A stretch of 60,482 nt of DNA from an uncultured Candidatus Peribacteria bacterium (GTDB taxonomy: Bacteria; Patescibacteriota; Gracilibacteria; Peribacterales; Peribacteraceae). Position 1 is the stretch's first letter. The number at the start of each line of letters is the position of its first letter. Positions 1,964 through 14,993 of this stretch are shown here, piece after piece. Where the stretch lies: NCBI GenBank assembly GCA_964448615.1, contig CAYUWH010000003.1, forward strand, positions 1 to 60,482. The letters run 5' to 3'. The notes below the pieces were generated by a model. That model did no database searches and had not been told where the DNA came from. It saw nothing but the letters and a program-made list of their open reading frames with translations. A program made the position numbers and the translations under genes.

Positions 1964-4345
1964 TCAATGATTAATATCCGCGAGTAATTTCTCGTGTTCC
2001 TTCTTCGCTTCCTCCTCCGTCAACGTGCGGTCCGCAGCGCGGTAGGTGAAGCGCAGTGTGAGGTTGTACGCGCCGGACGTGTGTTGCTTGCCTTGATACA
2101 GATCCGCGACGCGCACTTCTTCCAGGAGTGCCGATTTCGCTTTCAATGTCTGCAGCAGCGCATTCGCTTCTTTGTCCTGTGACCAGGGCAGTGTGACGTC
2201 GTAGCTGATGGCGGGGAATTGTGGAATCGGCGTGGCGTATTTCTCGTTCGGCTTTTTGGAAAGGACTTGCGAAAGGTTGACGGTTGCGGCCGCCGCACGA
2301 TGCTCAAAACCGAAGCGTTGCCGGATCGAGGGATGCACTTCGAACATGCTGCCGGCAGCCTTTCCATCGACGATAACATCCGCATGGCGCCCTGGATGCA
2401 TGTAGGCGGCATGCTCTTTTGCGGTACGATATTCCGCTTCATAGCCCATTTCTTGTAGCGCTACTGTCAGATCCTGAGAGAGATGTAAAAACGGATCATC
2501 GATAAGCGCAGTCTCTTGTTTGGCGACGTACAGCAGGCCGAGTTCCGTGTGCTCCGGTTTTTTGACATGGAACACGTGGCTGCGATGGAAGGTTTTGAGC
2601 GGACCGTGCGAGAGTAATATATTTTGTTTCGCGTGCACCAACAGCTGCGGTAACGTGGATGTTTGCATCAGCGCGAAATCTTCATTCAATGGATTAGCGA
2701 TGCGCACTGCTTCTTTGGGATCCATGCCGCACTTCGTGAGCAGTTCTGCGCTGACGAGCGAGAGAGGCAGAATTTCCAAATAGCCATCGCCTTTCAGTGC
2801 TCTGCGAAGTTGATGCGTGTGAAGATCGCGAACGGGAATGCGAATGGGGGCCGTGGGCGTCTGTTCCGGAGAACGATCATAGCCATGTACGCGTGCGATT
2901 TCTTCTACAAGATCCGCCGGAATGCGCAGATCACGCAGACGATGGAGCGGAGGAGTGATCACCAGTGTGCGCTTCTTTGCATCGGACTTCACGGTGCACC
3001 CGAGTGATTCCAAAATATCTTTCACTTCTTTGGCGGGAAGTTCCATTCCCAGCATGCCGTTCAAATAGTCCTGTGAAAGCGTGATTGGTTCGGGTTCTCC
3101 ATCGCTGCCCCAGGTGAGCATTTCCGATTCGATGTTTGCACCGGGACAATGTTCGAGAAAGAGTTCGATCGCGCGTTTGAGTGCATGCTCGACCATCACG
3201 GGAGGCACCCCTTTTTCGAAGATCGTCGAGGCATCGGTGCGATGGCCGACCGATTGCATGGCCTTGCGAATGTGGAGAGAGCTAAAGGACGGGGCGTGAA
3301 GGAAAAACGAGCGCGTGGCATCGGTGGTGGCGCTCCGTGCATCACCCATGATGCCGCAGAGATCGAAGATTCCCGCATTGTCTTCAAAAACGATGATGCC
3401 CTCATCAAGCGTGCGCTTCACGCCATCAAGCGTTGTGACTGCTTCTCCCGCATCCGTTTCACGGAACGTGAGTGTCTTGCCTTGCAGCTGATCGCGATCG
3501 AACGCATGCAGCGGGACACCGGTTTCCATCATGACGTAGTTGGTGATATCGACGGGCAGATTGATGGAGCGAATGCCAACCGCCTCAAGGCGTTGCTTCA
3601 TCCAATCTGGTGTTTCGCCATGCTCACGTACTTTCAAGCAGCAGGCGGCATAGCGCGGTACCAATTCCTCACGCGTGCATTTGATGGCGAAGGGAAGGGG
3701 GGCTGACGAGAATGAAACGTTCGGTGTTTTCGGCTGGCCTTTCTTCCAGGTCGCGAGTCCGACCGCCACACATTCACGTGCGAATCCACTGTGCGAAAAA
3801 AGATCGGGACGGTTGGTGATCGCGGTGTTGGAAATGTCGAGTGTCGTATCGGTGAGATCCAGTGCTTTGCGCAGATCTGCTCCAACCTTCATCTTCCCAA
3901 GGTTCACAATCGGGCGTTCGCCATCTTCTTCCGAGGGGGAAAACATTCCTTCCAATCCCAATTCTTCTGCCGCGCAAATCATGCCCTCGCTTTCCTCTCC
4001 GCGAATTTTGACGGGGGCGAGTGTCATCAATTCTCCTCCGTGCCACTTCACGGTCGCACCGATGTGCGCGAACGCGACGAGCATGCCTTCCTTCAGGTTC
4101 GTTCCTCCGCACACCACACGCTTCGTTCCCTTGTCCGTTTCCACGTCAGCCAAGGAAAGCTTGTCGGCATTGGGATGTTTGGTGATCGAGAGAACCTTGC
4201 CGACACAGCAGTGCGCGAGCAGCGCTCCTTTTGTACTCACGTGCTCCACTTCCGCAACACTCAGCGTCAGACGATCGGCGATCGCCTGCGGATCAGTCTC
4301 TTGCCACTCGACGAATTCCGAAAGCCAGTTCAGGGAAATCTTCAT
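1964..4345 (-). CDS. pheT: phenylalanine--tRNA ligase beta subunit
   Basis: The 814-aa ORF contains the canonical PheT N-terminus MKISLNWLSEFVEW at an internal Met (start set to 4345, giving 793 aa). Length and the C-terminal region (YNLTLRFTYRAADRTLTEEE) are typical of bacterial PheT. Confidence 0.9.
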   Translation of the reverse strand: MKISLNWLSEFVEWQETDPQAIADRLTLSVAEVEHVSTKGALLAHCCVGKVLSITKHPNADKLSLADVETDKGTKRVVCGGTNLKEGMLVAFAHIGATVKWHGGELMTLAPVKIRGEESEGMICAAEELGLEGMFSPSEEDGERPIVNLGKMKVGADLRKALDLTDTTLDISNTAITNRPDLFSHSGFARECVAVGLATWKKGQPKTPNVSFSSAPLPFAIKCTREELVPRYAACCLKVREHGETPDWMKQRLEAVGIRSINLPVDITNYVMMETGVPLHAFDRDQLQGKTLTFRETDAGEAVTTLDGVKRTLDEGIIVFEDNAGIFDLCGIMGDARSATTDATRSFFLHAPSFSSLHIRKAMQSVGHRTDASTIFEKGVPPVMVEHALKRAIELFLEHCPGANIESEMLTWGSDGEPEPITLSQDYLNGMLGMELPAKEVKDILESLGCTVKSDAKKRTLVITPPLHRLRDLRIPADLVEEIARVHGYDRSPEQTPTAPIRIPVRDLHTHQLRRALKGDGYLEILPLSLVSAELLTKCGMDPKEAVRIANPLNEDFALMQTSTLPQLLVHAKQNILLSHGPLKTFHRSHVFHVKKPEHTELGLLYVAKQETALIDDPFLHLSQDLTVALQEMGYEAEYRTAKEHAAYMHPGRHADVIVDGKAAGSMFEVHPSIRQRFGFEHRAAAATVNLSQVLSKKPNEKYATPIPQFPAISYDVTLPWSQDKEANALLQTLKAKSALLEEVRVADLYQGKQHTSGAYNLTLRFTYRAADRTLTEEEAKKEHEKLLADINH

Positions 4346-4430
4346 GCCGAGATGGTAGCGGAGCTGCCGGATACATGGTAGATCGCTCGTCAATTGACCC
4401 TCTTGCACTCAGGGTGCAAGATTGCGTCGC

Positions 4431-5075
4431 ATGTTGCAAAGCCCAGCTCGACAGCCCCAATTCGTAGCTGATTGGTTTTCAGTCCATATTCCCTCTTGGG
4501 AACGGCATTTTGCTGTTTTTGCCGGAAAGCCAAATATCCATGCACTGGAGATAGGGAGCTGGGAAGGACGCAGTGCTTGCTGGCTTTTGCAGAATATTCT
4601 TACAGATCCCAGTTCGCGTATTACTTGTGTGGATGCGTTCCCGACGCAGAATGAATATCTGGATGAAATTTCAAAACGTTTCTGTCATCTGCCCGCCGAT
4701 TTTTGTGTTGAAGAATGTTTTGATGCCAACATTGAGGCGGTGGGCGGTGCAAAGAAAACAAGCAAGCGCAAAGGGGAATCATGTCGAGTTTTGCGGACGC
4801 TACCCTTCGATTCGTTTGATTTGATTTACATTGATGGCTCTCACATGGCGTCGAATGTTCTTACCGATGCCGTCCTTTCCTGGGACTTGCTGCATGTACA
4901 TGGTCTACTGGTATTCGATGATTACAATTGGTCCATTGATCGTAATCCCATTCATGCTCCTCGTGCGGCGATCGATGCTTTTCTCAGTGTGTTTGCGGAA
5001 CAGTATGCAGTGCTTGAGCATGGAGCGCAGGTCATTCTCCGCAAGTTGCCGAACCCATCACGGTATCTTCTCTAA
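4431..5075 (+). CDS. class I SAM-dependent methyltransferase (Methyltransf_24-like)
   Basis: Motifs seen: DWFSVHIPSW, the glycine-rich motif I HALEIGSWEGRS, and LIYIDGSH. The first ATG at 4431 was chosen; the track ORF opens at a TTG at 4422. Confidence 0.75.
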   Translation: MLQSPARQPQFVADWFSVHIPSWERHFAVFAGKPNIHALEIGSWEGRSACWLLQNILTDPSSRITCVDAFPTQNEYLDEISKRFCHLPADFCVEECFDANIEAVGGAKKTSKRKGESCRVLRTLPFDSFDLIYIDGSHMASNVLTDAVLSWDLLHVHGLLVFDDYNWSIDRNPIHAPRAAIDAFLSVFAEQYAVLEHGAQVILRKLPNPSRYLL

Positions 5076-5192
5076 AAACAGTGCGGAGCATGTCAACATC
5101 GTTTGACAAACTTGCTCGAACGGGCGTGGCATTCTTGTGAGGAAAAAACGTGAAGAGTATCCTGAGAACCTCTTCCCTTCCTTCCGTTTCGT

Positions 5193-5450
5193 ATGTTTTC
5201 AAAATCCAAAAACGGTCCGTGTCCCACCTGCAAAGTCACGGGTCTTGTTATGATGGTTGTGGGGTATCTCGTTCTTCTCTTGTCGCTGGTCGGTGTCGTC
5301 ATGGCGCATATCGGCACGGAGGATGTGCCTGTCGTCTTCGGCACAATGAGCGGATCCCTCTCACTCTTGGTGTTTGTGGCATCCCTGTTCTTCGTAAAGA
5401 AGATGGGGAGCTGCTGCCCCTGCCAGTGTGAGCTTCCGAAGAAAAAGTAA
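5193..5450 (+). CDS. small hypothetical membrane protein with Cys-rich C-terminus
   Basis: 85 aa. Two hydrophobic helices (LVMMVVGYLVLLLSLVGVVM, LSLLVFVASLFFV) and a CCPCQC tail. No family recognised. Confidence 0.4.
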   Translation: MFSKSKNGPCPTCKVTGLVMMVVGYLVLLLSLVGVVMAHIGTEDVPVVFGTMSGSLSLLVFVASLFFVKKMGSCCPCQCELPKKK

Positions 5451-5529
5451 GCGAATCACGGTTTTAGAAGAAGGGCCGTTTGACATTGAGCAGATGGCCC
5501 TTTGTTGTGTACACTGCTGCCCCAACCAA

Positions 5530-5620
<91 letters not shown>

Positions 5621-5644
5621 GAACCAGACCGGCAATCAAAACAA

Positions 5645-5670
5645 GAGTAATTCAGGAATTGCTCTTTTTT
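5645..5670 (+). terminator. intrinsic terminator after tRNA-Ser
   Basis: Stem GAGTAATT (5645-5652) pairs with AATTGCTC (5657-5664), loop CAGG, followed by T6 (5665-5670). Confidence 0.7.
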
Positions 5671-5746
5671 CATATAACAAGTGCCGGTCGGTTCATGGCG
5701 CGCCCTGTACCCGATCTGCCAAAGGCAGAGAGTGGTACAGGGCCAT

Positions 5747-5775
5747 TTGACATACCCACACCCTTCATCTTGAAT
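5747..5775 (+). promoter_or_regulatory. sigma70-like promoter of ncRNA unit 1
   Basis: TTGACA (5747-5752), 17-nt spacer, TTGAAT (5770-5775). The unit's first G (5782) lies 7 nt downstream. Confidence 0.7.
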
Positions 5776-5781
5776 CGCCCC

Positions 5782-6082
5782 GATCCAATTGCTTAGTTCT
5801 TTCACGAGAACTCACTCTGCGCTCTTGTAGTGCAGGGTTGACCTCCGATAAATACCATCCGGTGTCCGGATGGAGGAGGTATGGACGGTCGTGAGATCGT
5901 TCAGTCTGCCTGGCTCTTTGCACGGCTGCCTTGGTAGCCAGGGCCCGTCGCGTTGCTCCGTGCCGCAGGCCTAACCAGGCAGCCCTGCAACTTCTCGTTG
6001 CAAAGTTTTTTCCAAAACTTCGCAACGACAAGATTCCACGAATTGGATCATTCCGGGGAGATGCTTCTCCCCGGATTTTTTT
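5782..6082 (+). ncRNA. retron-like structured ncRNA, unit 1
   Basis: 5' GATCCAATT (5782-5790) is complementary to 3' AATTGGATC (6041-6049). Conserved scaffold to about 5908, unit-specific arm 5909-6035, CCACG at 6036-6040. Terminator CCGGGGAG/CTCCCCGG plus a T-run at 6053-6082. Confidence 0.75.
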
Positions 6083-6121
6083 AGTTCAACTAGTTGTTGG
6101 CGCATTCTCACGTACTGGTAT

Positions 6122-6150
6122 TTGACATATTCATGCAATCCGCATTCAAT
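6122..6150 (+). promoter_or_regulatory. sigma70-like promoter of ncRNA unit 2
   Basis: TTGACA (6122-6127), 17-nt spacer, TTCAAT (6145-6150). The unit starts at 6157. Confidence 0.7.
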
Positions 6151-6156
6151 ATCGCC

Positions 6157-6450
6157 GATCCAATTGCTTAGTTCTTTCACGAGAACTCACCCTGCACTCT
6201 TGTAGTGCAGGGCTGACCTTCGCCAAAGACCATCCGGCGTCCGGATGGAGGAGGTATGGACGGTCGTGAGACCGTTCAGTCTTGTTGGCATTCGGAAGGC
6301 ATGCGTTATGTCGTTCCGGCCCTTCGCTTCGCTCAGAGCCGCAACTTAATAACGCAGCCATGCCGACCAAATGCATAAAGAAAACTCGTTTTCTTTATGC
6401 ATTCGGATCCACGAATTGGATCACCCCGGGAGGGCTCGCTCTCCCGGATT
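6157..6450 (+). ncRNA. retron-like structured ncRNA, unit 2
   Basis: 5' GATCCAATT (6157-6165) pairs with AATTGGATC (6414-6422). Scaffold to about 6283, specific arm 6284-6408, CCACG at 6409-6413. GC hairpin CCGGGAG/CTCCCGG at 6426-6447 with only a weak T-run (ATTGT). Confidence 0.75.
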
Positions 6451-6496
6451 GTACGTGCCCAACCACTTGTTGTTGGCAGATTCCATTCTTCGATAT

Positions 6497-6525
6497 TTGA
6501 CATGTCATGATAATCCATCTTCAAT
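6497..6525 (+). promoter_or_regulatory. sigma70-like promoter of ncRNA unit 3
   Basis: TTGACA (6497-6502), 17-nt spacer, TTCAAT (6520-6525). The unit starts at 6532. Confidence 0.7.
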
Positions 6526-6531
6526 ACTCTA

Positions 6532-6818
6532 GATCCAATTGCTTAGTTCTTTCACGAGAACTCACCCTGTACCCATCGTGGTACGGGGTTGACCTTCGCC
6601 AAAGATCATCCGGCGTCCGGATGGAGGAGGTATGGATGACCGCGAGGTTATCCGGTCGGACTGGCTAGCAGGGCTTGTCGCACTTGAGGGTGCCCTCGCT
6701 TCGCTCGAGGCATACCCTCTTCGTACGACGACGCCCTGACAGGCACTGACAAAGCGTTGTCAGTGCCTGTGTACCACGAATTGGATCGCCCCGGGGGAGT
6801 TCTCTCTCCCGGATTTTT
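6532..6818 (+). ncRNA. retron-like structured ncRNA, unit 3
   Basis: 5' GATCCAATT (6532-6540) pairs with AATTGGATC (6779-6787). Scaffold to about 6659, specific arm 6660-6773, CCACG at 6774-6778. Terminator hairpin 6791-6812 plus T5 at 6814-6818, which overlaps the next -35. Confidence 0.75.
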
Positions 6819-6845
6819 GACAAGTACAAAAAATCATCTTTACTG
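6817..6845 (+). promoter_or_regulatory. sigma70-like promoter of ncRNA unit 4
   Basis: TTGACA (6817-6822), 17-nt spacer, TTACTG (6840-6845; a weaker -10). The unit starts at 6851. Confidence 0.55.
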
Positions 6846-6850
6846 CTCTA

Positions 6851-7143
6851 GATCCAATTGCTTAGTTCTTTCACGAGAACTCACCCTGTACCCATCGTGG
6901 TACGGGGTTGACCTTCGCCAAAGATCATCCGGCGTCCGGATGGAGGAGGTATGGATGACCGCGAGGTCTCCAGTCTGCTGTGCTTTGACCTTCGAGCGAC
7001 TACTTTGGGTTCAGCCATTCGCTTCGCTTATGGCTGCCCCGGCGTATCGCCCGAAGCTCACGGCGTCACAATCAATGCTACGCATTCATTGTGACCCAGA
7101 CCCACGAATTGGATCACCCCGGGAGGGCTCGCTCTCCCGGATT
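6851..7143 (+). ncRNA. retron-like structured ncRNA, unit 4
   Basis: 5' GATCCAATT (6851-6859) pairs with AATTGGATC (7107-7115). The first 117 nt are identical to unit 3. Specific arm 6978-7101, CCACG at 7102-7106. The 3' hairpin (7119-7140) is identical to that of unit 2. Confidence 0.75.
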
Positions 7144-7189
7144 GTACGTGCCCAACCACTTGTTGTTGGCAGATTCCATTCTTCGATAT

Positions 7190-7218
7190 TTGACATGTCA
7201 TGATAATCCATCTTCAAT
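7190..7218 (+). promoter_or_regulatory. sigma70-like promoter of ncRNA unit 5
   Basis: TTGACA (7190-7195), 17-nt spacer, TTCAAT (7213-7218). Identical to the unit 3 promoter. The unit starts at 7225. Confidence 0.7.
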
Positions 7219-7224
7219 ACTCTA

Positions 7225-7520
7225 GATCCAATTGCTTAGTTCCTTGGAACTCACTCCGCACACGCAAGTGCTGCGGGGCTGACCTCCGCTTCACAATCAT
7301 CCGGTGTCCGGATGGAGGAGGTATGGACAGTCGTGAGGCTGTCCGGTCTGGGTGGTTCTCGATCACTCAGGTTAATCTCGTTTCGGCCTGTCGCATTCGC
7401 TCCAAGCCGCAACTGAGCTAACATGAGTGACCGACCCTTTTTCCCTGAAATGGGATTTCAGCGAAAAAGGGATCCACGAATTGGATCTCCCCGGGGAGAG
7501 GCATCTCTCCGGATTTTTTT
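7225..7520 (+). ncRNA. retron-like structured ncRNA, unit 5
   Basis: 5' GATCCAATT (7225-7233) pairs with AATTGGATC (7479-7487). This is the most divergent scaffold, with compensatory stem changes. Specific arm 7351-7473, CCACG at 7474-7478. Terminator GGAGAG/CTCTCC plus T7 ends at 7520. Confidence 0.75.
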
Positions 7521-7552
7521 CGACTTTTCCAACGTTCTTCCGGCGACGCATT

Positions 7553-9358
7553 ATGAGTCTTAACAGTATGCCCAGCGAGGAAACCCTTGAGTATTGCTCG
7601 CAATTATTGCAACGGCCGTTTACGGCGCCGTGGGAAGCGAGCGGTGTCCTGCTCAGTATTCTCGAGCAGTTGCGCACACGGCCAGGGGCTCTGTATCGCA
7701 CGCAATATATTGAAAAAGGCAACGGCAAAATGCGCCGAATCGATGAGCCCAACAAAATTTTGAAATTCGTGCAGAAGCAAATTTCGTTGGTGCTGAATCA
7801 TGCATGGGTCGCGCCGGGCGTATGCGGCTTCGTGCTGAACAACAGCGCGCAACAAGGATTGCGCGGCATGATCGACACGATGTACGTGGGAACGGAAGAG
7901 CATCCCGCTCGCGGGCCCATCAAGGCGGTGTACCAAGAAGATATTGAAAACCAGTTCGGCTCTATCACGCGCGATCAAGTGGAAGAGGCGCTGCGCGAGC
8001 ATTTCTTCACGCGCATTTTGCACGATTGGGAGAAGGGGCCGAAACTCCCCAACTTGCAAGTCGGCAGAATCGCCGAAGTGATTGCCGAAGTGTGTTGCTA
8101 CGAAGGACATTTGCCGCAGGGTTCTCCCGCGAGCCCCGTCCTCTCCAACATCGTCTGCACGCGTTTCGATTTCGCGTTGAGACGTTTGCTCGGCAAGCAG
8201 GGAGTGTACGGACGCTATGCTGACGACATGGTGGTGCTCGCGTGCGACAAGCTCGATACGAAATTCCGCGGGAAATTCCGCAACATTCTCAATACGTGCG
8301 GATTCAACGTGAATCGTGAAAAAGGAGAATATGAGGAACACCGGCGAAGGAAGACTGAGGAAGAAAGTTCCGGCGATCCGCGCCAACGTTTTCGCATTTG
8401 GGGAATGGATCTCGTGGTTGATGACGATGCGCAGACAGCATGGTTCCGCCTGCCGAGGAACATGGAGCGCCAATGGGTGGAAGATATCTCCGCAATGCTG
8501 GAGGGTGCCGGCGATTTGCCTCGTGACTCAAAAGAATTTATGAGTGACACGCGCGTATTGGAGGTGCTCGGCAGGCTTGCTTATGCGTTCCAGGTAACAC
8601 GTTGGGGGCATCCCGATCACATCAAGGGGCGCGAATTTCCCGGCCGTTCCGACGAGAGACCGGAGATTACCGGCGCGCATGAATTCCTCCCGAAGGATTT
8701 GGCACGAATCTGGCGGGCGTTCCGCGCCGAATTCGGAGGCAGGTTGCCGCAACGTCACCGACGTTGGTTCCACGATACGGCGCCGCTCTATAGCGCCAAC
8801 AGCACGCGGGTTCCCGTTACCTCCGGGGAGTTTGAAGAACGATTGCACGAATTCGGCGTTGAGAGAGGCTTTGATGAAGCGACATTGATCGCGGAGTTGA
8901 ATCACTATCAACAGCATTTTCAAAGCGATTATCCGCTCGTGGATGCCGATGGCGTCCAGTACCGCGCTGCCGGACAGAGCAATGATTACCCCGATGAAGC
9001 ATTGGCGGAAGCGTCTGAACTCTTTGTCCAGCAGAGTCCGAGCGTGAGCGATACGGAGCGTCTTGAATTGCTGCGCAGAACGCTCGCGTGCTTCAGCGGA
9101 TTCGTTCGCTGTTTATTTGCCGGGCAATTGCAAGGATTCAGCATCAGCGAGCAGCACGACTCATTACTGCCGGTGAACGGCCAGCGCCCGTGGCAGCGCT
9201 TGCTGCAAGAGTGTCGTCGCGCGGGCATCTCCACGCCTGAGCTTGTGCGGTTGTTTGATGCAAGCACGTCTCGCACGCAGTACCGCATTCGTCCGAAAAC
9301 CCTCCCCAAAAAAGTGCATCGTGAACATCTGCACTTGTACGGTTTCGATAACGATTGA
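7553..9358 (+). CDS. reverse transcriptase (retron/UG-like, not assignable to a known class by eye) with long C-terminal extension
   Basis: RT motifs in order: KGNGKMRRIDEP (motif 1), YQEDIENQFGSI (motif A), LPQGSPASPVLSN (motif B, ~8111-8150), RYADDMVVL (motif C, ~8212-8235), GFNVNREKGE (motif D). About 280 aa follow with no recognisable domain. Start set at the first ATG after the unit-5 terminator; the track ORF opens at 7427 inside the ncRNA. Confidence 0.9.
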   Translation: MSLNSMPSEETLEYCSQLLQRPFTAPWEASGVLLSILEQLRTRPGALYRTQYIEKGNGKMRRIDEPNKILKFVQKQISLVLNHAWVAPGVCGFVLNNSAQQGLRGMIDTMYVGTEEHPARGPIKAVYQEDIENQFGSITRDQVEEALREHFFTRILHDWEKGPKLPNLQVGRIAEVIAEVCCYEGHLPQGSPASPVLSNIVCTRFDFALRRLLGKQGVYGRYADDMVVLACDKLDTKFRGKFRNILNTCGFNVNREKGEYEEHRRRKTEEESSGDPRQRFRIWGMDLVVDDDAQTAWFRLPRNMERQWVEDISAMLEGAGDLPRDSKEFMSDTRVLEVLGRLAYAFQVTRWGHPDHIKGREFPGRSDERPEITGAHEFLPKDLARIWRAFRAEFGGRLPQRHRRWFHDTAPLYSANSTRVPVTSGEFEERLHEFGVERGFDEATLIAELNHYQQHFQSDYPLVDADGVQYRAAGQSNDYPDEALAEASELFVQQSPSVSDTERLELLRRTLACFSGFVRCLFAGQLQGFSISEQHDSLLPVNGQRPWQRLLQECRRAGISTPELVRLFDASTSRTQYRIRPKTLPKKVHREHLHLYGFDND

Positions 9359-9385
9359 TCTTCTTCATTTTTTTCTCTTTCTCCC

Positions 9386-12300
9386 ATGTCCAAGAAAGCC
9401 TCTGTCGCCGCCGCTCCGACCGTCGTCACCGACGAGTTGTACGCATTGCTCGAGCGGGATCCCACTGCTGCCATCTTGCAGACGAGTCTTGCGGAAGATG
9501 CCGCGGCGCATCTCGACGATACGTCGGAAAAGCGCATGGCCGTCGAGCCGGAAATCGTGGGAATTCTTCTCGCAGGATTCCGTGCATCCGTGGAGCAATA
9601 CATATCCAGCGAACTCCTCGAGGCGCACCCAGATTTGCAGGATATGAAGGAGAGCATTCTGCAGGGGAGGCGAAAAGTGCGCGGCGACATCATGCGATTA
9701 CTGAGAGAGCACGGCGGGCATTTGCGCAGCGCTTCGCGGGAACAGAGTCGCTTCAATCATGAAGTGACGTACGAACCGGGTAAGGATGTGGAGCCGACAC
9801 TCGCGAACTTCCGGCATTTGCGCGGGTTGCACAAAGACATTGAAGCACGCCGCGATGAGATGGCTGCCACGCTCGGCGGAGCGCAGCGGTCGTTGCGCGC
9901 GAATATTCCGGGCATGGCGGCCTTCTCGCGCTTGATCGTGCAAACTGAAGGTGGTTCCGAGGAGCATCGTCTCAAGACATTGATGCGCCAAATGTGGGGT
10001 GACGAGCGCGTGCAGGCGGAGTGGGTGCGTGCGCAACACGTGGCCTATGCGCAGGCGGCCGAGCGCGGAGACAGAATCATCGAAGGTCCTTCGACGGTGG
10101 TATTGCTCAACCGCATTCATCGCGAAATCAACGTGAACAAAATGCGCGGCTCAACAGGTGTGGCGCTCGTTGGTCCTCCGGGCTGGGGAAAGACCGAAAT
10201 CTTGAAGCACTATTTCGCGGAAGTCGGCATCCACTTGGTCACGGCGGACATGTCGCGCATCAGCAATGCCGCCACGCTCATGGCGCGCCCGGCGTTGCAG
10301 GATGAATCGTTCCGGAGTCTTGATGATGTCATCGATGCGATTGAGACGATGACGCATCGCGACTTCCTCCGTTTCTATACGCAACATCCGGAGTTGTGTC
10401 AGCAGGCAGGCATTGATTGGGACCAGATCAAAAATCCGCGCGCAACGCAGCGTCTTGCCAATGCCCGGCAAGCACTGGCGGCGCCGCTTAAAGATGCGCG
10501 CGGGAACCGCATCGCCGAAGCATTGCAGACCCACGTTCGTCAGCGCGGCGTCGTCTTCGGCCTCCTTGCCAAAACCTTGCTGAGACCCAACAGCGCGTTC
10601 GGCTTCGAAGAATTCACGTACCTCGACATTGCCAACGCGCCGTTCGTCAATGGTCTCATGACGACCATTCCCGCAACGGATGAAGAAGCGGGCTTGCCTC
10701 CGGATGAACGCACGACTCCCGGCGATCTGAAGGGGTGGTTCCAGGAACCGATCAGCGGCATCTGGTTCCGCGTACCCAAGACCTTCTCGATCAACGGCAC
10801 GGCGAACGTGGGAGCGGCGTACCGCAACCAGGGAATTTCCGCGGCGTGGGAGAGCCGCTTCGGCGGAGGATTGATCACGATCCCGTTGCGTGATCAGCGC
10901 AAAAAAGAAACAGCGCCGATCGATGACGGCGTCGAATTCCAGGAAACGCCGGAAGGCAATCAATTCAAGGAGTATTTGGAGACCCTCGTCTGGCCGCGCC
11001 TCTCCGATTCTACGACAGGCCGTTTCGAATTGGATGACGACACCGCGTACCGTCTCGACTTCCTCGTCCGCCGCGTGTTGCCGCATATCATCTCCACGCT
11101 GCGCCGTCGCAATCGCAAAATGCCGAACCTCTCGATTCGCACGCTGCAGGATCTTTGCAATCGTTTGCTTCCTCGATCCCAAGACGAAGACTTGAAGGGC
11201 GTGAATTTGGATACCGCGATTTGGGAATCCATCGTTGAACCGCTGGCTGCCGATATCGATCAATACGGGGAAACAGTCGAAGTGGTGCTGGCATGGTTGA
11301 TGGGCTCCGGCGTGCTGCGCAACGTCGGTACGCGCGTGAAGGGGTTGTTGTCGGGTCCGGTGCATCAGCGTTTGCAAAAAACGATCGATCAGCTTCGTAC
11401 TTCCGGCTCGGGGAATACCGAGCAGGCGGCGGAAACATTCGAGCAATTCCAAGATACGCAGTACACCAGGGCCGAAGGAGTGCATGCGGGTTCTTGCCAT
11501 GCGTGCGGCGTGACGGCATGTCCGGTTCACGGCAAAGACACCGAGGAATATCTCCATCAACTCGCGCAACTGGAGCGCGCAGCGGCGATGGGTATGACGC
11601 CGGAGATCGCACGCGCCATCAGCAAGCGTCAGGCTGAATTGTTACGCGCTCAGGAATGGGGAATGCTGCTCGAAGTGTATTTGGAAACGAACGGTGCAAA
11701 GCAGTTGGAGAAAATTCCTGCGGGGCTGGAAGAATATTTGCAGAGCTTGGTGACGGCATGTACCGAAGATCCTGAACAGGCTCCCGAGCACATTCAAATT
11801 TTGCAGCGAGCTTCCGCCAATGCGTTGCCCGTCAAAGTTGATCAGCAGTGGATGTGCACGATGATGGATTACTGGGGTAAGGTGCTCGCAAATACTGAAT
11901 TCGTAGATGTTCACGAGCGTCTTAAGCAGCTGCAAGATGTACCGGGAGCTTCTGCGGAGCAGGACCGTGTGCGCATTGGAAAAGATATGCAACGTATTGT
12001 GCGCGACCGTATCGCGCCGGCCTTGCGTGTCATGAGGACGTTGCAAGAATGGTCCAAGCAAACGCGTGATCTCAACATGGATGAATGTATGGTGTTGACC
12101 GATATGGTCGATTACCTGCCTGCCCAGTCGTTGATGGTGGCTCGCGAGTTGACGGCGGAGGAAGAGCATAAAGATGTGGTGAAAACCGCGGTGGACCGTT
12201 CAGTGAAAAGCCGCAAGAAAGAGCTGCAAGCGGAATTTAAAGCGATGCGCGACAATCTCGGTGGCGGTGCCAATCAAGAGGCGGCGCAAGGGCGCGTCAT

Positions 12301-12616
12301 TGCCCGTCCGCCTGCCGAAATCGCACAGATGCCCCAACTCGTTCAGCAGTATGGCGCCGTGCAGCGTCTGTTGCGCGAAGCGGGGGCACTCGCGAAATTG
12401 CATGCTATTCCCACGGAAGAGCTCACCGAACTCGTATCACTTGCGTCCGGCTTGCTGCGTGAAGGATTCGGGGGCGAAAAAGAATCCGACGTGTGCATTC
12501 CTTTTGTGCGCTGCATGCGCACGATCGCGGATGTTCGCGGCATGAGCGTCAATGATGTGCTGCAATATTTCTTCGAACCCAAAGTGGTGCCGTATCCTCC
12601 CATTCGTCAATTCTAA
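9386..12616 (+). CDS. large P-loop NTPase, AAA+ (MoxR/AAA_5-like) core with long helical extensions
   Basis: 1076 aa. Walker A GVALVGPPGWGKTEILK (~10160-10200). Candidate Walker B AFGFEEF about 130 aa downstream. The rest is not recognisable. Starts 27 nt after the RT stop. Confidence 0.6.
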   Translation: MSKKASVAAAPTVVTDELYALLERDPTAAILQTSLAEDAAAHLDDTSEKRMAVEPEIVGILLAGFRASVEQYISSELLEAHPDLQDMKESILQGRRKVRGDIMRLLREHGGHLRSASREQSRFNHEVTYEPGKDVEPTLANFRHLRGLHKDIEARRDEMAATLGGAQRSLRANIPGMAAFSRLIVQTEGGSEEHRLKTLMRQMWGDERVQAEWVRAQHVAYAQAAERGDRIIEGPSTVVLLNRIHREINVNKMRGSTGVALVGPPGWGKTEILKHYFAEVGIHLVTADMSRISNAATLMARPALQDESFRSLDDVIDAIETMTHRDFLRFYTQHPELCQQAGIDWDQIKNPRATQRLANARQALAAPLKDARGNRIAEALQTHVRQRGVVFGLLAKTLLRPNSAFGFEEFTYLDIANAPFVNGLMTTIPATDEEAGLPPDERTTPGDLKGWFQEPISGIWFRVPKTFSINGTANVGAAYRNQGISAAWESRFGGGLITIPLRDQRKKETAPIDDGVEFQETPEGNQFKEYLETLVWPRLSDSTTGRFELDDDTAYRLDFLVRRVLPHIISTLRRRNRKMPNLSIRTLQDLCNRLLPRSQDEDLKGVNLDTAIWESIVEPLAADIDQYGETVEVVLAWLMGSGVLRNVGTRVKGLLSGPVHQRLQKTIDQLRTSGSGNTEQAAETFEQFQDTQYTRAEGVHAGSCHACGVTACPVHGKDTEEYLHQLAQLERAAAMGMTPEIARAISKRQAELLRAQEWGMLLEVYLETNGAKQLEKIPAGLEEYLQSLVTACTEDPEQAPEHIQILQRASANALPVKVDQQWMCTMMDYWGKVLANTEFVDVHERLKQLQDVPGASAEQDRVRIGKDMQRIVRDRIAPALRVMRTLQEWSKQTRDLNMDECMVLTDMVDYLPAQSLMVARELTAEEEHKDVVKTAVDRSVKSRKKELQAEFKAMRDNLGGGANQEAAQGRVIARPPAEIAQMPQLVQQYGAVQRLLREAGALAKLHAIPTEELTELVSLASGLLREGFGGEKESDVCIPFVRCMRTIADVRGMSVNDVLQYFFEPKVVPYPPIRQF

Positions 12617-12619
12617 ACG

Positions 12620-14572
12620 ATGTCCGAATCCTCTCCTGAACGGCCGCGCAATCCAACCCGTCTCCCGGAGATTCTCAGTGATCTGCATATCGAATTGTTG
12701 CGCCCGATTTGCGAAGGGGTGGACAGTGCGGAATTGCGCCCGTCCGATCCCAATACGGAGAGCAGCGGCTATGCCACGATCATCTCGCAGCCGGACAAAG
12801 ATGCACCGCAGCGGCTCGTCATCTATTACCATCCCGTGACGGTGCACACGATCGGCGAGGCGCGCGTGTTCGCGATCATGCTGCATGAACTGGGGCATCA
12901 TCATCCTGAAGTTGAGCGGTTCCAGCATTCGTGTTTGCGCTTTGCCAAGGCGGCGGAAGGAGAGCAATTTTTACCTCCGAACCTGGCTGACAAAGCGAAG
13001 CTCGTGCATACGTGTTTCAATATCCTCGCAGACGTATTGCTTGAAACCATTTGCTGCCGCAATCTGCCTGCGGAAAAAATGATGCGCAGCGCGCTTTCCT
13101 ATAATCGTGCGCATCTCTTTTTTGAGCACATGGATCCGGACGGGACGCGTTTGCAGGCATACGAAGAGTCGGATCGTCAGCTGTTTCCGTGGTCGGAAGA
13201 GGAATTTCGCAAGATGGAAGCGTGGTCCCAGCTTATGCAGGCATCGCTCGTCGCGCCATTTTTTCAATGGCCGGACGAGGCGTGGATGGCTCCGTCGCTT
13301 GCCAAGCGCATGCCGGAAGTGCGGCAGCTGTTCAGTGAGCTCCGCAGCCCCGCGACCCGCGGCGAGATGAAAGGACATTTGTTCCTCAAATACGTCGGTA
13401 TCGTCGGAGATTTGATTCGAGAGGAGATGCACAAGCTTTCCGCCGCCGGCGGCGATACGACCCAAAAATCGGGCGAACTCAGCGATCGTGTCGGGGATAC
13501 TTGTGATCGCGCGGATCGCATCACCAAGCCCGGAGAGGCGGAAGGACAGCCTTCAACGGAACAGAAAGAGCCTCCGCCCAGAGATCTGACTGAAGATATC
13601 GGTGCACAGCGCAAACGCATGGATGACTTGATGCAAAGCCAGAATGCGGAAGAGGAAGAATATATCAAACAGAAAGCGGCCGAGCTTGGCGTTAACGTAA
13701 AAACGTATCGTCTCTATCTCGATATTTGTAAAGAGTGGGAGGATGTCATCAAAGAGTTCACCAGGGCGCTCTCGCAATTCGTGTTGCGTGATTTTCAAGT
13801 GGAACCGCGTACGGGATTTTCCGAGGGCTACATGATCACGCCGGGCCGGGAATTTGAAACGTACATGCGTATCCGAATGGGGGAGGAAGACCCCGACACG
13901 ATGGAGGGATACCAGACGTTCCGCAATCCGCGCGTGTTGCAGCTTTACCCGTGCATCGACACGTCCGGAAGCATGAAGCACCGTATCGAAGAAACGTTGG
14001 CGTATTACACCGTTATCGCGAAGTCCTGCTTTAATATTCAACAGGAATTGAAGCACAACGCATCGAACTACAACATTCCTTTCAGTTGGCCGCCCCCCCT
14101 TTCGCTCGAAGTCGTGACGTTCTCCGACACGCCCGAAGTGGTCGTGCCGTTTCAAGAAACGATGGACGAGAAGACGCTTCTCAAAGGCTTCGAGAGCATC
14201 ATTCATGAGACGAGCGTGGGGCAAGGCACCAACGACAGCGGAGCGCTGAAATTCGTGTATAAAGAAATGGAAAAGAACGATGTGAACGCGCTCAAAATTC
14301 TCATGATGCTGACGGACGGCGTGGGGAATCACGACCTTCTGGAGCCGATCATCCGGCAAATCGAAGAGGATCCGGGGATTTATTTCCTTGTGTCCGGAGT
14401 GGGCTACGGGTCGGGTGCGGTGCAGAAAGCGTATCAAGATCGCTTCCGACCCACGCAGGATTTTCATGTGTTTGCCATGGAGCATGAAACGGTGAAAGAG
14501 GCGCTGCTCGAGACTCTCGGGCTCATCAAGCAATGGACTGCGGAATTCTACGCCCGCAATACACCGAGCTGA
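12620..14572 (+). CDS. zincin-like (HExxH) + von Willebrand factor A domain protein
   Basis: 650 aa. N-terminal IMLHELGHHH (HExxH, ~12884-12898). C-terminal vWA with MIDAS-like DTSGSM (~13958-13975) and MMLTDGVGN. Starts 3 nt after the NTPase stop. The layout resembles the metallopeptidase-N + VWA-like proteins that partner MoxR ATPases. Confidence 0.65.
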   Translation: MSESSPERPRNPTRLPEILSDLHIELLRPICEGVDSAELRPSDPNTESSGYATIISQPDKDAPQRLVIYYHPVTVHTIGEARVFAIMLHELGHHHPEVERFQHSCLRFAKAAEGEQFLPPNLADKAKLVHTCFNILADVLLETICCRNLPAEKMMRSALSYNRAHLFFEHMDPDGTRLQAYEESDRQLFPWSEEEFRKMEAWSQLMQASLVAPFFQWPDEAWMAPSLAKRMPEVRQLFSELRSPATRGEMKGHLFLKYVGIVGDLIREEMHKLSAAGGDTTQKSGELSDRVGDTCDRADRITKPGEAEGQPSTEQKEPPPRDLTEDIGAQRKRMDDLMQSQNAEEEEYIKQKAAELGVNVKTYRLYLDICKEWEDVIKEFTRALSQFVLRDFQVEPRTGFSEGYMITPGREFETYMRIRMGEEDPDTMEGYQTFRNPRVLQLYPCIDTSGSMKHRIEETLAYYTVIAKSCFNIQQELKHNASNYNIPFSWPPPLSLEVVTFSDTPEVVVPFQETMDEKTLLKGFESIIHETSVGQGTNDSGALKFVYKEMEKNDVNALKILMMLTDGVGNHDLLEPIIRQIEEDPGIYFLVSGVGYGSGAVQKAYQDRFRPTQDFHVFAMEHETVKEALLETLGLIKQWTAEFYARNTPS

Positions 14573-14594: not shown

Positions 14595-14993
14595 ATGCAG
14601 TTTCCTGTCGAGCTCTCTCCGCCGTTACTTGCGTTGGCGATGCAGCTGAATCTTCGTCCCGAGGATATCGAGGAGCAATTCGTGAAGGGGAGCGGAGCCG
14701 GAGGGCAGAAGGTAAACAAAACCAGCAGCGTCGTGCATCTTCGCCATGTGCCCACAGGCATCGAAGTGCGGATGCAGAAGCATCGCGAACAGAGTCGGAA
14801 CAGGGCTTCTGCCTATAAGCTGCTGATTCTCAAGATTGAGGAACACAAAAAGGGAAAAGAGTCGAAGCTCTCGCAGAAAATTTTTAAGTTACGAAAACAA
14901 AAACAGCGTCGTTCGCGACGGGCGAAAGAAAAAATGCTTCAAGAAAAACATCATCGCACGGAGATCAAAGAGGGGAGAAGATCGTTTCTTTAG
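14595..14993 (+). CDS. RF-1-domain GGQ protein (ArfB/ICT1/C12orf65-like peptidyl-tRNA hydrolase)
   Basis: 132 aa. GSGAGGQKVNKTSSVVHLRHVPTGIEVRMQKHREQSRNRASA is a class-I release factor GGQ domain. It is followed by a lysine/arginine-rich tail. Confidence 0.8.
   Translation: MQFPVELSPPLLALAMQLNLRPEDIEEQFVKGSGAGGQKVNKTSSVVHLRHVPTGIEVRMQKHREQSRNRASAYKLLILKIEEHKKGKESKLSQKIFKLRKQKQRRSRRAKEKMLQEKHHRTEIKEGRRSFL

Follow-up and report, generated by a model that had tools for sequence, protein, structure and literature searches.

Retrons are described as systems of one reverse transcriptase (RT) and one non-coding RNA (ncRNA), and multiplexed retron arrays have so far been engineered tools only. The 13-type retron classification (Mestre et al. 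2020) contains neither an AAA/VWA effector nor tandem ncRNAs, its effector examples being ATPase+HNH, Toprim, NDT, PRTase, 2TM, HTH, DUF3800, HEPN, protease, TIR and SWIM, and the other retron literature searched mentions neither feature. Synthetic retron arrays built for multiplex editing, the "multitrons" (PMC10370050), provide one retron RT with several msd templates; neither that report nor the other retron literature searched mentions a natural counterpart. Variable ncRNA arrays that template complementary DNA (cDNA) hairpins with no 2'-5' branch have been shown for UG27 (bioRxiv 10.64898/2026.09.22.753630, Sept 2026), a class 2 Unknown-Group RT with a YSDD motif from prophages of Bacteroidota and Bacillota, whose units of 135-167 nucleotides (nt) contain a pseudoknot and AUCN7UANAG and UUYA motifs and accompany sORF/bORF accessory proteins without detectable domains. 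Here we describe an array of five ncRNA units ahead of a retron-like RT gene in a contig of an uncultured Candidatus Peribacteria bacterium (GenBank assembly GCA_964448615.1, contig CAYUWH010000003.1), analysed over a stretch of 60,482 nt that is referred to below as the window.

The locus belongs to a retron-type family that has not been described before and that combines natural ncRNA arrays with a new effector pair. The five units probably form a retron-type ncRNA array that serves the one downstream RT and whose arms are copied into DNA. This reading builds on the architecture of the units and its conservation, the covariation of their closing helix, an asymmetry between the strands and the linkage of array and operon, all of which are observed. 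The retron analogy, drawn earlier in a first-pass annotation of the same DNA, is strongly supported: a retron-like RT gene begins 65 nt past the fifth unit, the closing helix covaries, an unpaired G is invariant, and the junction is like that of retron Ec86 (Retron-Eco1).

A constant scaffold carries variable arms

The array, composed of five head-to-tail units of 256-268 nt each, lies on the + strand within window 5740-7525 (outer limits 5782-7488; coordinates are window positions), flanked by tRNA-Ser(GGA) at 5530-5619 on one side and a three-gene operon on the other. Unit limits come from a junction-descriptor search (TGCT...CGA plus complementary arms), used together with unit-by-unit folding because MAFFT/RNAalifold, given whole units or scaffolds, aligned the 5' halves of different loci wrongly. 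U1 spans 5782-6049, with its closing helix at 5782-5790/6041-6049, a candidate branch G at 5791, a scaffold extending to ~5902, variable arms and CCACG at 6036-6040. The other units, U2 (6157-6422), U3 (6532-6787), U4 (6851-7115) and U5 (7224-7488), place the candidate branch G at 6166, 6541, 6860 and 7234 and CCACG at 6409-6413, 6774-6778, 7102-7106 and 7474-7478, respectively.

The fold common to all units consists of a 9-bp closing helix (GATCCAATT/AATTGGATC), an unpaired GCUUAG and four scaffold hairpins, P1-P4, of which P3 is a CCUCC/GGAGG helix around CAUCCGGnGUCCGGAUG. On the 3' side of P4, a GTCTG-like spacer leads into two hairpins, the first long (70-84 nt) and imperfect and the second short (31-42 nt) and near-perfect, followed by 4-8 unpaired bases ending in CCACG and then by the 3' arm AATTGGATC; this ending, noted in the first-pass annotation, is present in 5/5 window units. 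The long hairpins occupy 5918-5990 (U1), 6284-6367 (U2), 6669-6738 (U3), 6982-7064 (U4) and 7359-7434 (U5), and the short hairpins 5991-6032, 6368-6405, 6739-6770 (perfect, 14 bp), 7065-7095 and 7435-7471. The variable part had been drawn as a single stem with a terminal hairpin on top; that it folds was correct, and the single stem gives way to these two separate hairpins.

Folding of the window units yields z = -6.4 to -9.8 for whole units and z = -2.6 to -8.8 for the variable arms folded alone. Pairwise scaffold identity among the five is 80-98%, reaching 98% between U3 and U4, and a scaffold 30-mer occurs 5 times against 0 expected. Long arms are 54-69% identical and short hairpins 40-59%, both at the level of shuffled controls, so the claim that the arms differ between units yet all fold is borne out. 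Conserved scaffolds joined to a variable part at shuffle level were found in 5/5 loci tested in this way.

Within the array, the 147 nt after U2 (6406-6552) and after U4 (7099-7245) are 99% identical, and promoter plus scaffold of U3 (6516-6648) and U4 (6835-6967) are 98% identical, with unrelated arms in between. Such segments around unrelated arms point to a mosaic array, probably produced by recent segmental duplication or gene conversion that spared the arms.

The first-pass annotation had suggested comparing the arms with phage, plasmid and host sequences, and no real match was recovered. BLAST of the whole array gave no match against INPHARED phages and chance matches only (E = 0.5) against PLSDB plasmids, a BLAST with short words, comparing the five arms with the remainder of the window and with loci L001-L051 (homologous loci are described below), gave chance matches of <=14 nt only, and 20-mers taken from the U2 and U3 arms found no exact match in IMG/VR. 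Matches of a scaffold 18-mer in two IMG/VR viral contigs were rejected, the contigs being unrelated on inspection.

The closing helix and junction share the geometry of Ec86

The 9-bp closing helix is formed by inverted repeats of the retron a2/a1 type in 5/5 window units. An ungapped alignment of junctions, comprising 21 units from 6 loci, reveals TT-G-CT and CG-AA as invariant in 21/21, with the unpaired G directly 3' of the 5' arm. Within the closing helix, 93.7% of cells pair, compared with 69.7% in shuffles and <=56% with the partner slid, and compensatory changes are found in 7/9 pairs.

The E. coli genomic locus of Ec86, used as a control, reads TGCGCACCCTTA-G-CGAG... facing ...CTGAC-G-TAAGGGTGCGCA; the 5' repeat is followed by an unpaired G and the 3' repeat preceded by AC-G. 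The window units share this geometry, arm-G-CU.../...(C)AC-G-arm. The multicopy single-stranded DNA (msDNA) of Ec86, the 86-nt sequence of which matched the genomic locus exactly, starts opposite the C of AC-G. Because the junction geometry equals that of Ec86, CCACG is best read as CCAC, which would be templated, plus an untemplated G, the putative partner of the branch G; of the earlier proposal that CCACG holds the first templated bases, the CCAC portion stands by this analogy and the final G drops out.

Arms favour the complementary strand

Sense and complement were folded with identical parameters for 35 units from 8 loci; for the scaffold statistics, units of one locus are not independent. 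In 29/35 units the sense strand of the scaffold is the more stable one (p = 8e-6), while the variable part is more stable as complement in 31/35, including 5/5 in the window (p = 4e-5), where sense/complement energies amount to -57.5/-69.0, -51.9/-64.4, -64.9/-65.9, -59.0/-66.4 and -49.6/-64.9 kcal/mol. In the predicted minimum-free-energy structures, G.U accounts for 10.0% of scaffold pairs and 5.0% of arm pairs (p = 1e-5), and the 1x1 mismatches of the arms in RNA sense are mainly A.C (24), C.U (20) and C.C (11), corresponding to G.T, G.A and G.G in cDNA. The A.C to G.U ratio is 24:63 in arms versus 1:93 in scaffolds, which contain a single A.C (p = 7e-8). Ec86 is compatible with this pattern, its msr folding at -19.6 as sense versus -12.9 as complement and its msd at -36.6 versus -36.7.

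Since the arms favour the complement while the scaffolds favour the sense strand, the predicted folds indicate that the arms probably act as cDNA. By the same asymmetry, RNA would give way to DNA between the long arm and P4, a hairpin with G.U pairs. The assignment of the variable arm as msd, suggested from the window alone, thereby gains independent support.

A conserved tip caps the long arms

A TCGC-loop-GCT tip and CCACG are kept in 5/5 window units. The tip reads TCGCGTTGCT in U1 (5948-5957), TCGCTTCGCT in U2 (6324-6333), U3 (6696-6705) and U4 (7019-7028), and TCGCATTCGCT in U5 (7391-7401), all motifs quoted in the first-pass annotation having been located in their places. Three copies of the exact 10-mer TCGCTTCGCT exist in the 60-kb window, all of them at arm tips, with 0.23 expected. 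The tip is conserved as had been claimed but is wider than the loop alone, U1, U2 and U5 sharing GGCC..TCGC-loop-GCTC..GCCGCA.

The heptamer d(GCGAAGC) forms an exceptionally stable GNA-triloop DNA mini-hairpin. In cDNA sense, the tip reads GA-GC-GAA-GC-GA in U2-U4, GA-GC-GAAT-GC-GA in U5 and GA-GC-AAC-GC-GA in U1, and the tip-flanking positions, which are U.C mismatches in the RNA, have tandem G.A appositions as their cDNA counterpart. Since its cDNA form contains d(GCGAAGC) and has tandem G.A where the RNA has U.C mismatches, the tip most likely serves the DNA product as a structural cap or as an element recognised by protein.

Separate expression signals for every unit

A TTGACA -35-like box, read by eye from sequence and alignment, stands on the + strand before U1 (5747-5752), U2 (6122-6127), U3 (6497-6502), U4 (6817-6822) and U5 (7190-7195). 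After each box come 17 nt of spacer, a weak -10 (TTGAAT, TTCAAT or TTACTG) and 6 nt up to the first closing-helix base, a spacing that would put the transcription start on the first nucleotide of the unit. A sigma-70 consensus scanner reported no promoters for the array, because the -10 boxes lack an A at position 2. One G+C terminator hairpin follows each unit, with a T-run after U1 (6052-6082), U3 (6791-6817) and U5 (7491-7519) and none after U2 (~6425-6447) and U4 (~7118-7140). Promoter box, closing helix, scaffold, foldable arms and terminator hairpin are thus all kept in 5/5 units, and the array has a period of 319-376 nt with a promoter and a terminator inside each period.

Tandem Repeats Finder, applied to 4000-10000, reported nothing, since the unit arms are too divergent. 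A second deposited assembly (ENA) is identical to the window over 6568-10358. Between tRNA-Ser(GGA) and U1, window 5620-5745 contains two more inverted repeats, ATGAACCAGACCGGCA...TGCCGGTCGGTTCATGG and GCCCTGTACC...GGTACAGGGC, which could be a tRNA terminator or remnants of the integration site of a retron island.

Homologous loci carry up to ten units

The family is very rare: the RT has five full-length relatives among 5.8 billion protein clusters, 12 of 1.84 billion protein representatives match its C-terminal domain, and the ATPase has three matches. Named relatives are metagenome-assembled genomes of Peribacteria, Peregrinibacteria, Gracilibacteria and Patescibacteria, and the RT-ATPase-VWA operon is kept in every locus whose contig is long enough. 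The ncRNA survey covered ten distinct homologous loci with a readable ncRNA region, the locus of RT P0002 (45% identical) falling outside it; 8/10 have 2-10 units, situated upstream, downstream or on the opposite strand, and unit size across the family is 175-270 nt.

Ten units lie upstream of the RT in L056, the RT of which is 29% identical to that of the window. Upstream arrays are also present in L055 (five units; four in the near-identical L054, and five plus an N gap in L005), L006 (four), L061 (three), L009 (two), L004 (at least one) and L060 (one). In L008/L031, four units are downstream of the operon (L008 17021-18011), and in L053, the nearest relative surveyed (RT 39.8% identical to the window RT), three units lie on the strand opposite to the operon (8917-9854, minus). 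A "sixth unit" in L005 was rejected as a 100-N scaffold gap. Given their own promoters and their downstream (L008) or opposite-strand (L053) placement, the units must act in trans.

L054 (8956-9901) and L055 (8703-9901), which come from different samples, have flanks that are 100%/99% identical and differ by exactly one 253-nt unit. The difference could be genuine, with a unit gained or lost, or an artefact of k-mer assembly in which an identical repeat of 136 nt was collapsed. Three independent contigs, L001 (1-157), L002 (1-46) and L003 (1-53), stop within 160 nt ahead of the RT start, where a repeat array would be expected to interrupt short-read assemblies.

The conservation of loop motif and CCACG that had been anticipated among homologues is mixed. 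L053 keeps the wider tip module UUCGGCCCUUCGCGAGCUCGGnCCGCAC, close to UCCGGCCCUUCGCUUCGCUCAGAGCCGCAAC of the window, together with ACCACG. In L056, the long-arm tips of 8/10 units contain two or three tandem NCGCT pentamers at a fixed offset, a tandem motif that occurs 13 times across the 3-kb array and twice in the remaining 37 kb (both strands counted). L008 has CUUCGUC in 3/4 units, and no comparable tip motif is present in the units of L055/L005, L006, L009 or L004. Before the 3' arm, only CG is family-wide; ACG is usual, and CCACG is limited to the window and L053. In the L056 array (6926-9959), these runs of two or three pentamers make up the apical loops of the long arms and are largely unpaired, as in CCGCTCCGCTCCGCT, and this periodic NCGCT could provide a protein-binding platform or a template-slippage site.

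The reverse transcriptase and accessory proteins

The RT (601 residues; 7553-9358, + strand; alternative start at 7568, giving 596 residues) is composed of an RVT_1 domain at residues ~30-270 with the motif YGRYADD and a family-specific C-terminal domain of ~310 residues. Its top 25 PADLOC matches are all retron RT models, scoring 60-109 bits with none clearly best, and its best PDB matches are the RTs of retrons Ec86, Ec67, Kva2 and Eco8. In NCBIfam, it reaches 104 bits against retron St85 (cut-off 235) and 89 bits against Ec67. An AlphaFold2 model of the RT, built on a 5-sequence alignment, has a mean predicted local distance difference test (pLDDT) score of 51 and is unusable.

Downstream of the RT on the same strand are a P-loop/AAA-like ATPase of 1076 residues (9386-12616) and an HExxH+VWA protein of 650 residues (12620-14572). 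The ATPase contains a Walker A motif, GPPGWGKTS, and at residues 704-716 an invariant zinc-type motif, CxxCx4CPxHG; to MoxR or to any AAA family it is at best marginally similar (E = 1e-4 or worse). The second protein combines an invariant HELGHH, located at residues 89-94 in an otherwise unannotated N-terminal domain, with a C-terminal VWA domain bearing a DTSGSM metal ion-dependent adhesion site (MIDAS) motif. Neither the HELGHH domain nor the CxxCx4CPxHG motif is recognised by Pfam, NCBIfam or PADLOC, and PDB profile searches with the two proteins gave marginal matches only.

The adjacent operon (RT, ATPase, HExxH-VWA) contains no cas genes, and the flanking genes are housekeeping genes: pheT, tRNA-Ser and an RF-1-domain gene. 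PheT of the window shares 50-55% identity with proteins assigned to Candidatus Peribacteraceae, Peribacteria or Peregrinibacteria, which places the host in that lineage of the candidate phyla radiation. The RF-1-domain gene, directly after the operon (14595-14993), encodes a 132-residue protein resembling the ArfB-type peptidyl-tRNA hydrolase; it is probably unrelated to the system, since other loci lack the gene at the corresponding position.

Proposed mechanism

In the mechanism we propose, the closing helix would correspond to the retron a2/a1 repeats, and the invariant unpaired G after the 5' arm would be the candidate 2'-OH priming (branch) G. The four-hairpin scaffold would serve as msr, recognised by the RT and remaining RNA, with the variable double hairpin as msd. 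Primed through a putative 2'-5' branch at the conserved G, cDNA synthesis would start at the C of CCAC-G beside the 3' arm, proceed back through the short hairpin and then the long arm, and end close to the conserved GTCTG spacer that follows P4. The predicted product is a set of five different msDNAs of ~115-135 nt, each presenting two DNA hairpins, with the tip as a possible cap or handle, on a common RNA scaffold.

By analogy with characterised retrons, the msDNA-RT complexes may hold the co-encoded ATPase and HExxH-VWA effector pair or sense on its behalf. The array would then constitute a repertoire of DNA-hairpin baits, widening the range of phage nucleases, methylases and DNA-binding proteins that trip the system. 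We advance this defence function, in which several msDNA baits feed one ATPase/HExxH-VWA effector, tentatively, as possible but doubtful. A fairly low chance is given to the further proposal of a heritable, exchangeable repertoire for DNA-hairpin bait or recognition, in which scaffolds would be homogenised by gene conversion, whole msd cassettes gained, lost and swapped, and specificity set by the msDNAs made. Such cassette exchange is suggested by the 98% identical U3/U4 scaffolds with unrelated arms and by the one-unit difference between L054 and L055. If it were true, the tandem NCGCT tip would be a fixed handle read by the RT C-terminal domain or the ATPase/VWA effector, and the family would provide a naturally modular, multiplexed msDNA system in ultra-small bacteria of the candidate phyla radiation (CPR).

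Several points weigh against a retron-type array. A canonical retron has one ncRNA co-transcribed with its RT, unlike the separately promoted, trans-acting units found here, and an Rfam scan of 5600-7600 (gathering; E up to 1) revealed no msr or other RNA family, only a chance miRNA match. The RT scores far below the curated retron-family cut-offs and reaches none of them (104 vs 235 bits for St85). NAxxH and VTG are motifs typical of retron RTs; at these positions the alignment, by eye, reads SAxxG(LR) and (I/V)WG(V/M). No PADLOC model matches either accessory protein, and the proposed defence role is an analogy. The tip motif and CCACG are not family-wide, and the non-independence of units within a locus for the scaffold statistics, together with the dependence of pair and mismatch counts on predicted structures, count on the same side.

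Alternative explanations

A mechanism like that of UG27, with the RT, perhaps aided by the two accessory proteins, copying one hairpin per unit into a short free cDNA hairpin without a 2'-5' branched RNA-DNA, would obey the same logic of a variable array beside an RT and two accessory proteins (bioRxiv 10.64898/2026.09.22.753630). It accommodates units that are separate from the RT transcript, and the strand asymmetry, which shows selection of the arms as complement, says nothing on priming. The RT, however, has retron RTs and not UG or defence-associated RT (DRT) models as its best matches, carries YADD rather than YSDD, and is joined by proteins with ATPase, HExxH and VWA signatures, in contrast to the UG27 accessory proteins with no detected domains; moreover, the motif AUCN7UANAG is absent from the array, and a primer-independent mechanism has no need of 256-268-nt units with a covarying helix, an invariant unpaired G and an AC-G junction. 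We accord this mechanism a small probability. Should the units function purely as RNA, for example as paralogues with regulatory, antitoxin or scaffold roles that bind the RT or ATPase, their arms never being reverse-transcribed, the promoter and terminator of each unit would be those of an ordinary small RNA gene, and the arms do fold well as RNA too (z = -2.6 to -8.8). Such a role leaves unexplained why the complement is favoured in 31/35 arms with an opposite bias in the scaffolds, and why G.U is depleted and A.C/C.U enriched, which is sensible only as G.T/G.A in DNA. With the catalytic YADD kept in the RT and a junction that matches a known priming site, a purely RNA function appears improbable.

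The alternation of a constant repeat with unrelated inserts, the 98% identical U3/U4 scaffolds with unrelated arms and the single-unit difference between the near-identical L054 and L055 would also suit an acquired or diversified repertoire, whether CRISPR-like spacers, mutagenesis of the diversity-generating retroelement (DGR) type, decaying duplicates or a repeat with terminal inverted repeats resembling a miniature inverted-repeat transposable element (MITE). We consider this origin highly improbable. The arms are self-complementary hairpins, unlike spacers from foreign DNA, and therefore are unlikely to be captured or guide-like spacers; they have no match in phage, plasmid, IMG/VR or local sequence. 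A CRISPR array was rejected on the 319-376-nt period with internal promoters and terminators, the hairpin variable parts without foreign match and the absence of cas genes from the adjacent operon. Differences between units are total, not adenine-restricted, and fall outside coding genes, so that the DGR hallmarks are missing, and a DGR was rejected, with variable parts at shuffle level in non-coding transcription units. Promoter box, helix, scaffold and foldable arms are kept in every unit, which therefore are not pseudogenes, and the units always travel with the RT operon and have covarying closing arms, which argues against an independent MITE.

Comparison with known systems

The retron-type array described here resembles Ec86 and canonical retrons in an RT most similar to retron RTs, an ncRNA closed by inverted repeats with the unpaired G and AC-G, an RNA-type scaffold followed by a hairpin template, and accessory effector genes in the same operon. 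It differs in having 2-10 ncRNAs per RT instead of one, with their own promoter and terminator and sometimes located downstream or on the opposite strand, in a template of two hairpins instead of one, and in an RT with a ~310-residue family-specific C-terminal domain and deviations at the NAxxH and VTG positions. The accessory proteins match no type-specific effector of retron types I-XIII, from which the family is set apart by a 1076-residue P-loop ATPase with a zinc-type motif, an HExxH+VWA protein and an ncRNA without an Rfam msr match. For this effector pair, MoxR-VWA systems presumably offer the nearest comparison: AAA+ (MoxR-type)/VWA pairs and metallopeptidase-VWA fusions likewise have an ATPase gene followed by a VWA gene with MIDAS and an HExxH domain, but the window ATPase is about three times longer than MoxR, with marginal AAA similarity. 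A giant P-loop ATPase with an HExxH-VWA protein is a new effector pairing for retron-type systems, maintained in CPR bacteria, whose ~1-Mb genomes rarely spare 9 kb.

The family suggests that nature runs up to ten templates per retron-type RT from separate promoters, even in trans. The engineered multitrons (PMC10370050) are alike in placing several msd on one RT in one locus, including msr in trans. The constant scaffold and free arms mark the replaceable parts of the ncRNA, which may be useful in the design of multiplex msDNA or donor production.

The system parallels UG27 arrays but is distinct from them. In both, an RT and two accessory proteins are accompanied by arrayed units that keep their structure while their sequences diverge, each unit has a hairpin that is copied into cDNA (demonstrated for UG27, predicted here), and arrays differ by single units between close relatives. 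The published description and motifs set UG27 apart: the family described here has a retron-like YADD RT, CPR hosts (Peribacteria, Peregrinibacteria, Gracilibacteria), units of 175-270 nt with a retron-type closing helix and branch-G geometry, no AUCN7UANAG in the window array, and housekeeping rather than prophage flanks. Considered alongside UG27, the family suggests more than one origin for arrays of cDNA-hairpin templates.

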